Notes under the pieces: model-generated
Databases searched by the model: none
What the model saw: the letters and a program-made list of their open reading frames with translations, nothing else
What the model was told of the DNA's origin: nothing
Shown: positions 263 to 60,756 of the stretch, piece by piece
Position numbering within the stretch: the first letter of the stretch is position 1
Layout of the letters: each line of letters starts with the position of its first letter
Translations under genes and position numbers: made by a program
From: a virus
Direction: 5' to 3' (one strand)
Length of the DNA stretch: 64,000 nt
Virus record (IMG/VR): IMGVR_UViG_3300027833_000021
Coordinates: 32,001 to 96,000 of that record

Positions 263-1471
263 ATGAAAGTTAGAGACATATTAGGCGCAGGCTTAGAAAG
301 AAGATTTAGAGGTCCAAGAAAACCTCGTAATAAACAAATTGGTTTTCATCAGAAGATGAAGAAACTACTGGACAAAGCACTTAATGAAGAAGGTGCTAGA
401 ATTCAGCATTTAGAAGACTTAATTATCTGGGATGGTTCAGTCGGTGGTCAAAAAGCAATTGCAAAACTACATCAAGTAGAAACTTCTCCAAAATCAATTA
501 GTATTAAATGGGATGGCTCACCAGCCGTTATCTTTGGTCGTAATGAGAATGGCGAATTTGTTCTTACAGACAAAAGTGGATTTGGTGCTAAAGGTTATGA
601 TGGCAGAGTAACAAGTGCAGATGCGTTAGGTGATATGTTTAACAATCGTAAAATGCGAGACCCATCGCCAGAAAAAGTAGCAGACAAAGAAGCGTTTGTT
701 AATAATATGAAAACTATATGGGACAAAGTTGAAAGTGTTATACCTGCGGATTTCAGAGGATACTTACACGGTGACTTGTTATGGTTCTCAACACCACAAT
801 CAAAAGACGGTAGACTTATATTCAAGCCAAACACAACAACATATTCAGTAGATGCTAAAAGTGATATCGGTAAAAAGATAATCAACTTTGATGTAGGTAT
901 CGTAGTTCATGTAGTGATTGACTTAGATGGCAATAAAAGCAATGTAGATATGGGCAAACTTCAAGCAGGTAAAACATGGATTATGCCTCCAGTATATGTT
1001 ACTAAATCTCCTGGTGTTGACTTACCAGAAGTAGACAGATTAGAAAGTTATTTAAAATCAAATGCAAATGCAATTGATAAGTTACTAGCAGTTCCAGCCG
1101 AATTAAAAATGGCAGACTTTGGTAACATTCTTTACACTTATATCAATAATAGTGTAAAAGCAGGCAACCTAGATAAACTAGGAAAAAATTTCAGTGAATG
1201 GGTAGAAACATCAAAACTAAGTGGACCTAAGAAAGAACGAGCAGTTCAGTGGGTAGAACAAAATAGTGATGGCTTTGAAGCAATCTTCCAATTCATTAAT
1301 GGTGTTATGACCACAAAGAACAAAATTATTAAAACGTTAGATTCTCAACCAGCAGATATCGAAGCCAGTACAAATGGCGAAAGAGGTGGAGAAGGCTATG
1401 TGATAGATAAAGATGTGAAACTGGTAAATAGAGCAGGGTTCACAGCGGCAAACATGAGGCAAGAGAGATAA
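263..1471 (+). CDS. DUF6267-like protein with ligase-type nucleotidyltransferase motifs
   Basis: KWDGSPA (KxDG motif I), HGDLL, GEGYV and VKLV resemble ligase motifs. Start moved to ATG 263 (MKVRDIL), just after the upstream stop. Confidence 0.7.
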   Translation: MKVRDILGAGLERRFRGPRKPRNKQIGFHQKMKKLLDKALNEEGARIQHLEDLIIWDGSVGGQKAIAKLHQVETSPKSISIKWDGSPAVIFGRNENGEFVLTDKSGFGAKGYDGRVTSADALGDMFNNRKMRDPSPEKVADKEAFVNNMKTIWDKVESVIPADFRGYLHGDLLWFSTPQSKDGRLIFKPNTTTYSVDAKSDIGKKIINFDVGIVVHVVIDLDGNKSNVDMGKLQAGKTWIMPPVYVTKSPGVDLPEVDRLESYLKSNANAIDKLLAVPAELKMADFGNILYTYINNSVKAGNLDKLGKNFSEWVETSKLSGPKKERAVQWVEQNSDGFEAIFQFINGVMTTKNKIIKTLDSQPADIEASTNGERGGEGYVIDKDVKLVNRAGFTAANMRQER

Positions 1472-1496
1472 TTTTTTAACTACTAATAATAAGACC

Positions 1497-1634
1497 ATGG
1501 GAAAAAGAGCAGTACCACACGTAAAAACACCAAAAAGAGGACAGAGAGCAACTAAGAAGAATCTCTCACACTCAACATTCGTATCAAAAAGGCACCCTAA
1601 CAGCAAACGTGTCACAAGTGGTGCAGTCACATAA
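1497..1634 (+). CDS. Small basic protein (45 aa, MGKRAVPHVKTPKRG...)
   Basis: Read manually; fills the intergenic gap; weak RBS. Confidence 0.5.
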   Translation: MGKRAVPHVKTPKRGQRATKKNLSHSTFVSKRHPNSKRVTSGAVT

Positions 1635-1642
1635 GATAAATA
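1635..1642 (+). promoter_or_regulatory. T4-type late promoter GATAAATA
   Basis: Variant of the T4 TATAAATA, upstream of the 1669/1866 genes. Confidence 0.65.
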
Positions 1643-1668
1643 CATGTGATATGTAAGAAAAGGAAGAA

Positions 1669-1869
1669 GTGATGTACAGCAAAGAGTGTAAATTGCATTT
1701 AGACGAAGCAAAGATGACACGATGGCAACATTTCAGACATGCACTTAGTATTGCTTGGAATTTAAAAAAGGCGGCAGGTGCAGTATTCATTCATGCATTT
1801 GCGCCAAGATATTTCAAATCATACGCAAGTGAAACATGTGACAGGATTGCGAAAGAGAACAAAAAATGA
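1669..1869 (+). CDS. DUF6356-like small protein
   Basis: HFRHAL...IHAFAPRYF pattern. Confidence 0.6.
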   Translation: MMYSKECKLHLDEAKMTRWQHFRHALSIAWNLKKAAGAVFIHAFAPRYFKSYASETCDRIAKENKK

Positions 1870-58107: not shown

Positions 58108-58633
58108 AACATCACATGAAGGTGTAGGAACTTTTGTATCAGTTTGGCTAGATGAAAAAGAAGGTCTAGTCAAGCGGATATTTGATGGTGACCACTGTGG
58201 TGATGGTGTGTCAAGGCGAAAGAGTAAAGCAGATATATTGTTCAGAAATGAAATATATTGGTTAACTCATCCAGAATTGTCTACGAGTAAATTCTTACCA
58301 GAACTTATTAGTATAGATGAAGAAACAAAAACTATAATTCAACGATATTATGGACCAAATCTGCTTGACTATTATCCTGATAACTTTCCTATAACAAACA
58401 TCTCTGAACAGATACTAGAGATGTATGAATTCTTTCATAAAGTAGGTGTCAATAAAATTAATGGTGCGTTATCTAACATGTCACTCAATGGTGACCAAGT
58501 TATTGCATTTGATTTTAAATGGGCTAGACCTGCCCCTAAGGCGAATGCTAATGAACTAAAAGCATTTAAGCAATGGCTTACAAAGATTGACCCAGAGTTA
58601 GTAGAGAAGTTAATTAAGATGAAGACTTCTTAG
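58085..58633 (+). CDS. Protein-kinase-like fold protein with a degenerate catalytic loop
   Basis: VKR, NE..WL, PELI, SNM...IAFDF. Confidence 0.55.
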   Translation: MNKWIKYKTSHEGVGTFVSVWLDEKEGLVKRIFDGDHCGDGVSRRKSKADILFRNEIYWLTHPELSTSKFLPELISIDEETKTIIQRYYGPNLLDYYPDNFPITNISEQILEMYEFFHKVGVNKINGALSNMSLNGDQVIAFDFKWARPAPKANANELKAFKQWLTKIDPELVEKLIKMKTS

Positions 58634-59991
58634 TTAATAGTATTACTTCCGTTTCTGTATTTCGTTACTAAACCACGTGGTTTTCTATCACTCCACTTTG
58701 GATGTTTCTTAAAGATTTCTTTGTACTCAGGCAACACATCAAACAGTTTAGTTCCGCCACGATGATTATCTAGTACTTCATTATACTTAAGAAAGTTATC
58801 TCTTTCTTCATCTGTATATTCAATATCACTACTCATTGCAGTAATGTATTCTTCAAAAATTTTAGCAAAACTCATTTCACCCATGTCGGTTTTTGTATCT
58901 AATTCTATAAAAGATTGCATCGTACTATTGATACGTGCTTTATTTTTTTCTAAGTATTCTTTTCTAACTTTAGATGGTAACACATATAATGACATGTGTT
59001 TTGGTTCATAACATATATGAAATATCATAATGAGTAAACCAATATTCTTATTATAGTTTATAAGCCAGTCACATACATCTAAGTATCTTAGTGCATTGAG
59101 TGACATAAGAGTTAGGTCAATTGCAAGAGTGACCGATGTCATTTCGTTATTCAATCTCTCTATATTGTTTTCAATAGTTTTCCATTCACTAGGATAACGA
59201 ATGTAATCATTTAGTTTTCCATATCCATCTATTGATACTGCTATTTCAACTTCTCTAAACTGATTAGTTAGAGTAATAAACCTATCTTGTATATTTGTAA
59301 GATTTGTGTTGTACTGTAACTTAACTTCATTTGCTCGTCCATCATCGATTATCTTTTGAAGTATTTCGTAGTGTCTTTCATGTAATGTTGGTTCACCACC
59401 AACAAAATATATTAAGTTTACACTAGGTAAAATATCTTGTAACTCTTCCCAGAATCTATCATCATTAATCCAATCGAATATTGTATCATTTGAATTAGTA
59501 CCAAACATATGCAACACTGGTTTATTTGTATACTTCTTTTCTAATTTTAGATTTTCTTTTTGAATTTGACTGCTTTGGTCAGAAGAACAAGAACGACATT
59601 TCAAGTTACATAGATTGCCTAGTCTAAGGTCTAAAAAGCCAGGATTAATTTCTAACTGACCACCATCTTCTAAGCATTTGTCTAAGTCTATATCAGCATC
59701 AACTAGTTCAAATTCTCTGTTTGAAGTTATACGAACAGAATCTAAACCTTCGTCTTCTTCTTTCCAACATTTAGTACATACGTCTGGCTTTTCACCATTT
59801 AGTAATTGAAGTCGTAATGTCTTATAGAAATCAGAATTCCATATATCTTTTATACTGGTATCATTTACATTACCCAGTATCTTTTCATTTTTTGATGTTA
59901 GATTACAACAGACGCCGCTTGTTCCGTTTGTTTTGACCATGAATTGGTAAAATGGATTAATACAAAATGTATTACTTTTTGACATGTACAC
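58630..59991 (-). CDS. Radical SAM protein with N-terminal Twitch/SPASM-like domain
   Basis: CNLKCRSC, GGEPT, YNTN, SIDG, YIRYPSEW. Confidence 0.92.
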   Translation of the reverse strand: MYMSKSNTFCINPFYQFMVKTNGTSGVCCNLTSKNEKILGNVNDTSIKDIWNSDFYKTLRLQLLNGEKPDVCTKCWKEEDEGLDSVRITSNREFELVDADIDLDKCLEDGGQLEINPGFLDLRLGNLCNLKCRSCSSDQSSQIQKENLKLEKKYTNKPVLHMFGTNSNDTIFDWINDDRFWEELQDILPSVNLIYFVGGEPTLHERHYEILQKIIDDGRANEVKLQYNTNLTNIQDRFITLTNQFREVEIAVSIDGYGKLNDYIRYPSEWKTIENNIERLNNEMTSVTLAIDLTLMSLNALRYLDVCDWLINYNKNIGLLIMIFHICYEPKHMSLYVLPSKVRKEYLEKNKARINSTMQSFIELDTKTDMGEMSFAKIFEEYITAMSSDIEYTDEERDNFLKYNEVLDNHRGGTKLFDVLPEYKEIFKKHPKWSDRKPRGLVTKYRNGSNTIN

Positions 59992-59996
59992 AACGC

Positions 59997-60305
59997 CTAT
60001 TTCTTAGGATTATTATTTACGTGTTTCGCTTTACCTTTACGATTAGCATTAGGGTCATTTGCTTTTTTTCTTTTAACTGCATTTGCAATTGCTTTTTTAC
60101 CACCCTTGGCTCTTAATGATGCCGCACGTGACTTAGATAGACACTTTGGTTTACCCTCACTGTCTTTAGCATCTCCGCATTTACCTATTCTTTCACCTTT
60201 AGTATTGTAACGGTCCCAACCGCCACCACCAGCACCACCTTTTTTACCTTTGCCAAACCATGCTTTTAAATCTTCGTCTAATGTTAAGACTTCATATATT
60301 TTCAT
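59997..60305 (-). CDS. Basic late protein (E|DLKAWFGKG motif)
   Basis: Start moved to MKIYEVL (60305). Confidence 0.75.
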   Translation of the reverse strand: MKIYEVLTLDEDLKAWFGKGKKGGAGGGGWDRYNTKGERIGKCGDAKDSEGKPKCLSKSRAASLRAKGGKKAIANAVKRKKANDPNANRKGKAKHVNNNPKK

Positions 60306-60306
60306 C

Positions 60307-60756
60307 TTACATTTCCAATGCTGTTTTAACTGTAGGCGATGCAATATCGATTGCGTATAATCCTGCCAATATCACTGATAGAATCTTTTCTAAACTTAAA
60401 CCGATTATTGCAATTTGTGGCAAGATAGGTGATAATAGCATTAGAATCATAACTCCTAATCCTATCATTCTTGGATGGGCACGAAAGAAACCAAAGAATT
60501 TTTGTAGTGTAGATTTTTCTACTGTTGGCTCTTCTCTATTCAGCATCACTTCTAGTTGAGCCATGTAATCTTCCATCTCCTGATTCTTTTCTTCTGATGG
60601 TTCTGGCTGTTTTTTGAATTTTGCCATTGCTTTTTGAAGAATTGTTTTACTCAACTTTTCAGCAGACATAGTACCTTCAAGTAATGGCACCTGTGTCTTA
60701 GCCCATTTCTCTAATTCGTATATTACTTCTGGTTTTGCAACTTCGTTAAATCTCAT
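60307..60756 (-). CDS. Hypothetical protein with a C-terminal TM hairpin
   Basis: Start MRFNEV (60756). Confidence 0.7.
   Translation of the reverse strand: MRFNEVAKPEVIYELEKWAKTQVPLLEGTMSAEKLSKTILQKAMAKFKKQPEPSEEKNQEMEDYMAQLEVMLNREEPTVEKSTLQKFFGFFRAHPRMIGLGVMILMLLSPILPQIAIIGLSLEKILSVILAGLYAIDIASPTVKTALEM

Follow-up and report, generated by a model that had tools for sequence, protein, structure and literature searches.

A T4-like N-terminal leader on unrelated late proteins of an uncultured giant marine phage: a candidate signal for packaging enzymes and basic proteins in the head

The DNA analyzed here is a window of 64,000 nucleotides that corresponds to bases 32001–96000 of a 115,064-base IMG/VR virus contig (IMGVR_UViG_3300027833_000021). 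Ten otherwise unrelated proteins encoded in this window begin with a short common peptide of the form M-[KRL]-h-x-[ED]-h-h, where h is a hydrophobic residue and x is any residue; proteins with this N-terminus are referred to below as tagged. With a probability of about 0.7, the shared N-terminus is a signal of the type found in bacteriophage T4, which directs proteins to the prohead and is then removed by gp21-type cleavage. Judged from their leaders, several very basic proteins, a kinase and a putatively ligase-like enzyme are likely to be packaged in the virion. The proposed mechanism is the one known from T4; the cargo is new.

The contig is rated 31% complete by CheckV, and no close cultured relative was found for it with megablast. 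Its UvsX is 59–67% identical to the UvsX proteins of Rak2-like and other jumbo phages (66% for Atu_ph07), and the best cultured matches of other contig genes are to marine T4-like Kyanoviridae (Pelagibacter phage HTVC008M, Methylophilales phage Melnitz and cyanomyoviruses). Two related IMG/VR contigs, G001 and G002, are ~342 kb in length; G001 is rated 92% complete and G002, which ends in terminal repeats, 100% complete. A G002 homologue was found for 126 of the 170 genes in our own gene call of the whole 115-kb contig, which is the basis for the motif counts given below. Because of the UvsX similarity, the Kyanoviridae matches and the ~342-kb relatives, the source of the window is identified from sequence as a genome fragment of a giant, uncultured marine phage that belongs to the T4 superfamily.

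The shared N-terminus and its enrichment

The first-pass annotation had listed ten N-termini of this kind, and every one is present at the position and on the strand presented in Table 1. The ATG codons of the tagged genes are located 1–5 nucleotides (nt) past the stop codon of the preceding gene or behind a promoter-like box of their own. The pattern ^M[KRL]h.[ED]h is found in 9 of the 170 contig proteins against an expectation of 0.6–1.0, and a stricter form of the pattern in 7 against 0.07–0.16. When residue 2 is ignored, 10/170 proteins have the core h.[ED]hh starting at residue 3, compared with a mean of 0.9 at positions 10–40 (Poisson P ~4e-8). The peak is one residue wide (10 at position 3; 1, 0, 0 and 0 at the neighboring positions), and residues 3 and 6 are hydrophobic in every tagged member.

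The same core was counted in two control genomes. In T4 (50–150 kb, 152 genes, same gene caller) the core appears at residue 4 in 10 proteins, which include IPI, IPII, IPIII, gp24, Alt and the alt.-1 remnant and also lysozyme (e), thymidylate synthase (td) and gp48. In SPO1 (132 genes) no protein has the core at residues 2–5. The motif signal on the contig is real and specific, because the peak is one residue wide, the same peak appears in T4 and none appears in SPO1. The T4 count amounts to about one false positive per true one, so that a match to the motif by itself says little about an individual gene.

No pairwise similarity was detected among the ten tagged proteins past residues 1–8, which rules out paralogy, and the proteins belong to different Pfam and PHROG families. 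A DNA-level repeat or recombined cassette is ruled out by the differing leader codons and upstream sequences. Since the choice of leader codons differs among the genes, the likeness lies at the level of protein and not DNA. An isoelectric point (pI) of >9 is calculated for 7 of the 10 tagged proteins versus 14% of all proteins (P ~9e-5).

Nearly all of the tagged genes had also been placed in promoter-driven late units, and all of them do sit in units behind a NATAAATA box, mostly GATAAATA. The large terminase gene and other structural genes have GATAAATA, or less often other NATAAATA forms, 27–50 nt upstream. By its sequence consensus the box is late-promoter-like, and the tagged genes would be transcribed late alongside the head genes. 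Copies of GATAAATA at 9986–9993, 12188–12195 and 61740–61747 head the units that contain the genes for the 92-, 106- and 149-amino acid (aa) proteins, respectively. The gene for the 130-aa protein has a CATAAATA box at 55703–55710, and the late unit of the DUF6267 gene has its GATAAATA upstream of the window.

Table 1. Tagged genes and the kinase promoter box in the window (↓, predicted cleavage site)
Feature	Position	Strand	Leader or remark
DUF6267 protein, 402 aa, ligase-type KWDG motif	263..1471	+	Pfam DUF6267 1.6e-33
Very basic protein, 92 aa, pI 11.5	10285..10563	+	Acidic 12-aa leader MLFEEIAEEIYE, then AKLVYARKGR
64-aa protein	11312..11506	+	MKLKEILGG...MITE↓EEE
Basic protein, 106 aa, pI 9.0	13314..13634	+	MKISGLLLE↓KANYDAQ, loose form of the tag
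GATAAATA late-promoter-like box	20467..20474	+	37 nt upstream of kinase gene
P-loop kinase, 237 aa, Zeta_toxin/AAA_33 (Pfam)	20504..21217	+	12-aa leader MRVNEIIGSIEE, then GVDDPHIFKA
65-aa protein	45337..45534	+	MKIKDIL...; probably a chance match
HExxH (HELLH) protein, 224 aa	54604..55278	-	MLISEII...; membership uncertain (motif and operon position alone)
130-aa protein	55280..55672	-	MKLTELLQE↓S, ~36-aa acidic linker, basic C-terminal domain
Very basic protein, 102 aa, pI 10.2, DUF6321-like	59997..60305	-	Leader MKIYEVLTLDE, then DLKAWFGKGKKGG
149-aa protein, hydrophobic C-terminal half	60307..60756	-	MRFNEVAKPEVIYE↓L; membership uncertain (motif and operon position alone)

Leaders and predicted cleavage sites

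Leader membership is strong for the kinase, the 92-aa protein and the DUF6267 protein. Among 99 distinct N-termini of kinase homologues, residue 2 is free (R, K, Q, L, F or H) and is the least conserved position of the leader. Residue 3 is V or I, residue 5 is E or D, residue 6 is I or V and residue 7 is mostly I, followed by a spacer of 2–6 residues; residues 3 and 6 are V, I or L in 95/95 of the leaders that could be aligned at their starts. The leader ends in a junction, [VILMF]-x-E, that precedes G-x-x-D-P-H-I-F-K-A, with E at P1 and V, I, L, M or F at P3 in 99/99 sequences. The leader is 11–14 aa long in 95 of the 99, and the 4 longer calls are upstream start choices. In the AlphaFold2 (AF2) model of the window kinase, residues 1–8 are the sole segment with a predicted local distance difference test score (pLDDT) of <50, and the first core strand spans residues 21–27. 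The fold is closest to those of bacterial and T4 polynucleotide kinases and of adenylate kinases. In one relative (L056:9335-10732) a 465-aa frame starts with MRIDQITE and encodes a basic Cys-containing domain followed by the kinase at its C-terminal end. The two parts meet at VDE↓GVNDPHIF, and the frame is either a polyprotein or two in-frame genes.

The relatives of the 92-aa protein have leaders of 11–15 aa that are highly variable in sequence and always of the form M-x-h-x-E-h ... h-x-E↓AKLVYARKG. The h-x-E junction is kept in 14/14 full-length N-terminal variants; a 15th sequence starts at an internal Met. The homologue from Salicola phage SCTP-2 is leaderless, and its start, M-AKLIYGRSG, is exactly the predicted mature end.

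The leader of the DUF6267 protein consists of MKVRDIL, a basic RRFRGPRKPR stretch and a helix, with the predicted cut at ALNE↓EG near residue 42. The protein is 31% identical overall to its G002 orthologue, yet the two agree at 19 of their first 22 residues. Among 120 relatives, M-K-[VI]-x-[DE]-[IL] is kept, and [ILV]-x-E nearly always stands just before GARIQHLEDL. Residues 1–48 of the AF2 model have pLDDT values of <50. The KWDG motif is invariant in DUF6267 proteins, and the model gives weak matches to the adenylation domains of DNA/RNA ligases (Z 5–6; Foldseek E ~0.09; model mean pLDDT 64). The description of this protein as ligase-like is thus a lead taken from a model. No PDB sequence matches were found for the DUF6267 protein or the kinase.

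Leader membership is good for the 102-, 130-, 64- and 106-aa proteins. The G002 orthologue of the 102-aa protein starts with MKIAEI, carries 32 inserted residues and retains VLDE↓DLRAWFGKGKKGG; DUF6321 is the annotation given to a cyanophage homologue. Homologues of the 130-aa protein elsewhere span residues ~37–130 only. This domain occurs in many marine phages, following a cytidylyltransferase-like gene in HTVC008M and being fused to a cytidylyltransferase-like protein in Melnitz. The 64-aa protein matches phrog_16215, "virion structural protein" (2.9e-4), and may be a small head or core protein. Relatives have 22 distinct N-termini, of which 21 conserve that of the 64-aa protein and the remaining one is called from an internal Met; a syntenic SCTP-2 gene starts with MKVVEITGGL. 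For the 106-aa protein, M-K-h-x-x-L-L-x-E is kept in 25 distinct relative N-termini.

The protein encoded at 60761–61708 (-) and the 102-aa protein match phrog_727 and phrog_3477 at different profile positions; in other phages both therefore belong to one larger protein. The unit that holds both genes ends with a radical SAM/SPASM gene (58630–59985).

Membership is uncertain for the 224- and 149-aa proteins. No homologue of the 224-aa protein was found in G002 or in the phage collection, and its gene is translationally coupled to the upstream tagged gene. No homologue of the 149-aa protein was found. The leader of the 65-aa protein is probably a chance match, and no h-x-E site follows its motif. 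About eight of the ten tagged proteins are credible members.

An [ILVF]xE-type site soon after the motif had been noted for most of these proteins. Such a site stands for the kinase (99/99), the 92-aa protein (14/14), the 102-aa protein (LDE↓D in G002) and, nearly always, the DUF6267 protein; it is lacking in the 65-aa protein and unclear in the 224-aa protein. The predicted cut falls 9–16 residues in for most of the tagged proteins and ~42 residues in for the DUF6267 protein.

These conservation patterns bear on whether the N-termini have a common function at all. A generic amphipathic N-terminal helix, combined with translation-friendly AT-rich early codons that place Lys at residue 2, could give similar N-termini with no shared role, and the enrichment would then come from composition and a post hoc motif. 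Lys is the commonest second residue among the contig proteins (29/170), the same core is present on T4 lysozyme and thymidylate synthase, and the motif was defined after inspection of the data. An origin in composition is nevertheless improbable. It would not account for a peak at one position only or for the lack of the core in SPO1, and residue 2 is the least conserved position of the kinase leader. The DUF6267 leader is kept while the body of the protein diverges to 31% identity, the h-x-E junction is invariant despite indels, and the codons vary from leader to leader.

Comparison with T4 and with the virions of cultured phages

Experiments that dissect capsid targeting come mainly from T4, where the route serves three small internal proteins and Alt. 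In IPIII of T4, targeting depends on residues 4 and 7 and processing on residues 8 and 10 (PMC9026906), and the T4 internal proteins are basic (PMC8442874). In the T4 record, IPII and IPIII start with MKTYQEFIAE↓A, IPI with MKTFKEF...ITE↓A, gp24 with MAKINELLRE↓S, Alt with MELITELFDE and gp22 with MLKEQLIAE↓A. Like the T4 capsid targeting sequence (CTS), the leaders in the window are N-terminal, ~10–20 residues long and located on unrelated, mostly basic proteins of predicted late expression. Both have hydrophobic residues three apart (i/i+3) with Glu between them and end in hydrophobic-x-Glu, and a gp21-family protease is present in the lineage.

The register is one residue shorter here, M-K-h-x-E-h-h versus M-K-T-h-x-E-h-h in T4. 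Positions 3 and 6(7) are the conserved ones here and, with the h-x-E that closes the leader, reproduce the pattern of IPIII one residue earlier. The first-pass annotation had taken the peptide for an address tag of the phage's own; comparison with the T4 leaders assigns it instead to the T4 CTS class, shifted by one residue. Unlike in T4, a variable spacer often parts the targeting box from the cut site, and the DUF6267 leader is 42 residues long with a basic stretch. The cargo also differs in that enzymes (the kinase and the ligase-like protein) are included besides basic proteins. Alt is a T4 enzyme that is already packaged through a gp21-cut leader.

A 189-aa acidic protein encoded upstream of the window (contig 3257–3826) starts with MKTFKQYLTE↓S, the closest match to the T4 CTS and in the T4 register. 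Its G002 orthologue starts with MKQFKEFLTE↓S. The gene has its own GATAAATA 50 nt upstream and is near the large terminase gene.

Head proteins of phiKZ, 201phi2-1 and SPN3US are likewise targeted by N-terminal propeptides that are cut after Glu by a diverged gp21 homologue, and many of the propeptide-bearing proteins are ejection proteins (PMC5694885). Those propeptides are mostly >100 residues long and have an A/S/G-x-E motif (PMC5694885), whereas the leaders described here are short and T4-like. Apart from a T4 review, a full-text literature search turned up no publication connecting capsid targeting with cyanophages or marine giants.

A Peptidase_S77 (gp21) homologue is encoded in each of the relatives G001, G002 and G003. 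The gene order in G002 is portal, a 72-aa protein starting with MKYSDITE, a 308-aa protein, the protease (192761–193390), a scaffold-like protein (MANEILANLLE↓S) and the gp23-family capsid protein, which contains LNE↓S within its propeptide.

Related leaders are found on proteins detected in the virions of Atu_ph07, which is a Rak2-like giant phage with a T4 core. The entries of its Table S5 (PMC6102473) were matched to the sequence record by exact molecular weights. Eleven consecutive proteins, gp53–63 (39.5–50.6 kb), start with M-[KR]-[WL]-x-[QD]-L-x-E, and all of them were detected in virions (PMC6102473). Over a 40-gene stretch, the products of leader genes were detected in 14/14 cases versus 13/26 for the others (Fisher P 0.0009; 0.018 with paralogues collapsed). 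The leader of gp53–63 is unremarked in the original paper (PMC6102473). The block that starts with gp53 is near a primase/helicase gene, as is the DUF6267 gene here.

The 87.07-kDa gp53 starts with MKWNDLNE, followed by an ART-like domain, VTE↓G, a kinase domain that is 39% identical to the window kinase, and two further domains after LTE↓LFDT and LNE↓LFDT. It was identified with 31 peptides (45.5% coverage), and its abundance is highest in gel band 9, the band in which 18–45-kDa proteins (mostly of ~20 kDa) peak (PMC6102473). Processing of gp53 is therefore implied by the peak of an 87-kDa protein in band 9. The protein looks like a polyprotein joined at h-x-E sites. Unlike in the window, the kinase of Atu_ph07 is one module of a multi-domain protein, and its leaders have Trp at residue 3 and Gln at residue 5.

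The cytidylyltransferase S-SZBM1_140 of phage S-SZBM1 was detected in CsCl-purified virions (PMC9146016) and starts with MRFRQFIIE↓A. A leaderless DUF6267 homologue (MAKNTHLEHLEDD) adjoining S-SZBM1_140 is not on the virion list (PMC9146016). Kinases and cytidylyltransferases recur in cyanophage virions, and the question of contaminants was left open by the authors of that work (PMC10665884).

In HTVC008M, homologues of the DUF6267 protein, a basic protein, the kinase, a HIGH-type nucleotidyltransferase and the domain of the 130-aa protein (HVA1-like) are encoded in a single block (103.6–110.2 kb). The genes of the corresponding Melnitz block start with MQGFKTFLSE, (L)INFSKYITE, MKKFSELTSE, MKKFSEIIE and MKTFAELQE, all of which are T4-register leaders. 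From these two blocks, the tagged genes that are scattered in the window correspond to one conserved module.

With T4-type targeting and cleavage, the tagged proteins would be made late in infection, together with the head proteins. The amphipathic start (M, a variable residue, hydrophobic, x, Glu/Asp, hydrophobic, hydrophobic) would bind to the scaffolding core of the assembling prohead, and the tagged protein would be enclosed in the prohead by this binding. A gp21-family prohead protease would then cut after hydrophobic-x-Glu at the end of the leader, and the mature protein would remain in the head with the DNA. The cargo from the window would consist of the P-loop kinase and the DUF6267 enzyme (ligase-like) along with several small, very basic proteins; the HExxH protein may belong to it as well. 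We infer three of these steps for this phage, namely binding to the core, cutting at the named sites and entry of the proteins into the host by ejection.

The tag could also send proteins to the prohead and be cut there while some or most of these proteins are assembly-core or scaffold components, or fixed parts of the shell, and are not injected. Core components would be degraded or expelled at maturation, like T4 gp22, gp67 and gp68, and shell parts would resemble gp24. The T4 proteins gp24, gp22 and gp67 bear the same kind of N-terminus, and the 72-aa MKYSDITE protein of G002, between portal and protease, occupies the place of T4 gene 67. The 64- and 106-aa proteins are small, have no enzyme domain and are encoded in a block with PHROG "virion structural protein" matches. 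The 130-aa protein starts with a sequence that almost equals the propeptide of gp24, a vertex protein of the shell and not cargo; the window has no gp24 or Alt homologue. Such a structural reading is unlikely: enzymes such as the kinase and the ligase-like protein, and extremely basic DNA-binding-like proteins, are implausible as scaffolds, and the kinase-domain protein of Atu_ph07 and the cytidylyltransferase of S-SZBM1 persist in mature virions.

Packaging for injection with the DNA had been proposed from the window alone. The head-targeting part of that proposal is supported by the virion homologues and the T4-like leaders, and the injection part goes a step further. Because T4 gp24 bears the same kind of leader, the tag indicates head incorporation and cleavage, not injection. 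Each protein may be either injected cargo or a core or shell component, since similar leaders are carried by T4 gp24 and gp22.

Several observations weigh against T4-type targeting and cleavage. About half of the T4 proteins with the bare core, such as lysozyme and thymidylate synthase, are not packaged. Asp replaces the usual Glu in the leaders of the DUF6267 and 65-aa proteins, and P3 of the predicted sites is often Val, while T4 prefers Leu or Ile. The G002 orthologue of the 65-aa protein starts with MKSYTIELKVGD and has lost the motif, and that of the 130-aa protein has a different N-terminus. The virion proteomes stem from Atu_ph07 and S-SZBM1, neither of which is close to this phage, and the Atu_ph07 virions were purified with polyethylene glycol only, with evident contaminants on the list (RecA-like protein, single-stranded DNA-binding protein and ribonucleotide reductase) (PMC6102473). 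The link to gp21 rests on relatives with kinases that are 57–59% identical. Protease, scaffold and capsid genes were not found on the 115-kb contig, and their absence says little because the contig is 31% complete.

Untagged genes and the role of a packaged cargo

Host-like genes had been described as untagged. The identities of ClpX, the MtnN-like phosphorylase and PepA (M17) were confirmed, and the motif is lacking in all three. The presence of ClpX raises the question of whether the leader is a recognition tag for the phage ClpX (31940–33202 in the window) and a ClpP-like protease, which would time the unfolding or degradation of late proteins. ClpX reads some N-terminal Met-basic-hydrophobic signals, and a ClpP-family protein is encoded just upstream of the window. 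A degradation signal of this kind is very improbable here. The motif is acidic at position 5 with the i/i+3 hydrophobic spacing of T4, a conserved cleavage-type junction would be pointless in a degron, the same class of leader occurs in T4, which lacks ClpX, and the homologues are stable enough to be abundant in virions.

The ClpP-family protease gene (contig 29640–30287) is flanked by the genes for the primase and a DnaB-like helicase and precedes the window by ~1.7 kb. In addition to its gp21-type prohead protease, G002 encodes two ClpP-family proteins. A full-length IF3 homologue (IF3_N 5e-23, IF3_C 4.9e-18) is encoded at 33195–33734 (+), directly 3' of the clpX gene with an overlap of 8 nt, and the same pair is present in G002. 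The gene at 17831–18628 (+) encodes a 265-aa protein with a PAAR motif (residues 58–100) and a phage lysozyme domain (residues 133–257); the G002 orthologue consists of the PAAR part only (96 aa).

For the T4-type cargo proposed here, one tentative possibility is a conserved module of marine T4-like phages, made up of the tagged kinase, the DUF6267 protein, the small basic proteins and the HIGH-type nucleotidyltransferase, which is tagged in relatives. The module would be prepacked in the head and injected with the DNA as a nucleic acid repair or anti-defense kit. Such a kit would be a virion-borne counterpart of Pnk and RNA ligase of T4.

The leaders yield exact predicted mature N-termini, which can be checked in existing proteomic raw data. 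T4-type targeting, if true, would explain the cytidylyltransferases and kinases that recur in purified cyanophage and jumbo-phage particles (PMC10665884, PMC9146016, PMC6102473). Should this tag operate throughout the uncultured giant marine phages, the proteins that a phage injects could be listed from its sequence alone, and they would probably include the counter-defense enzymes of the first minute of infection.

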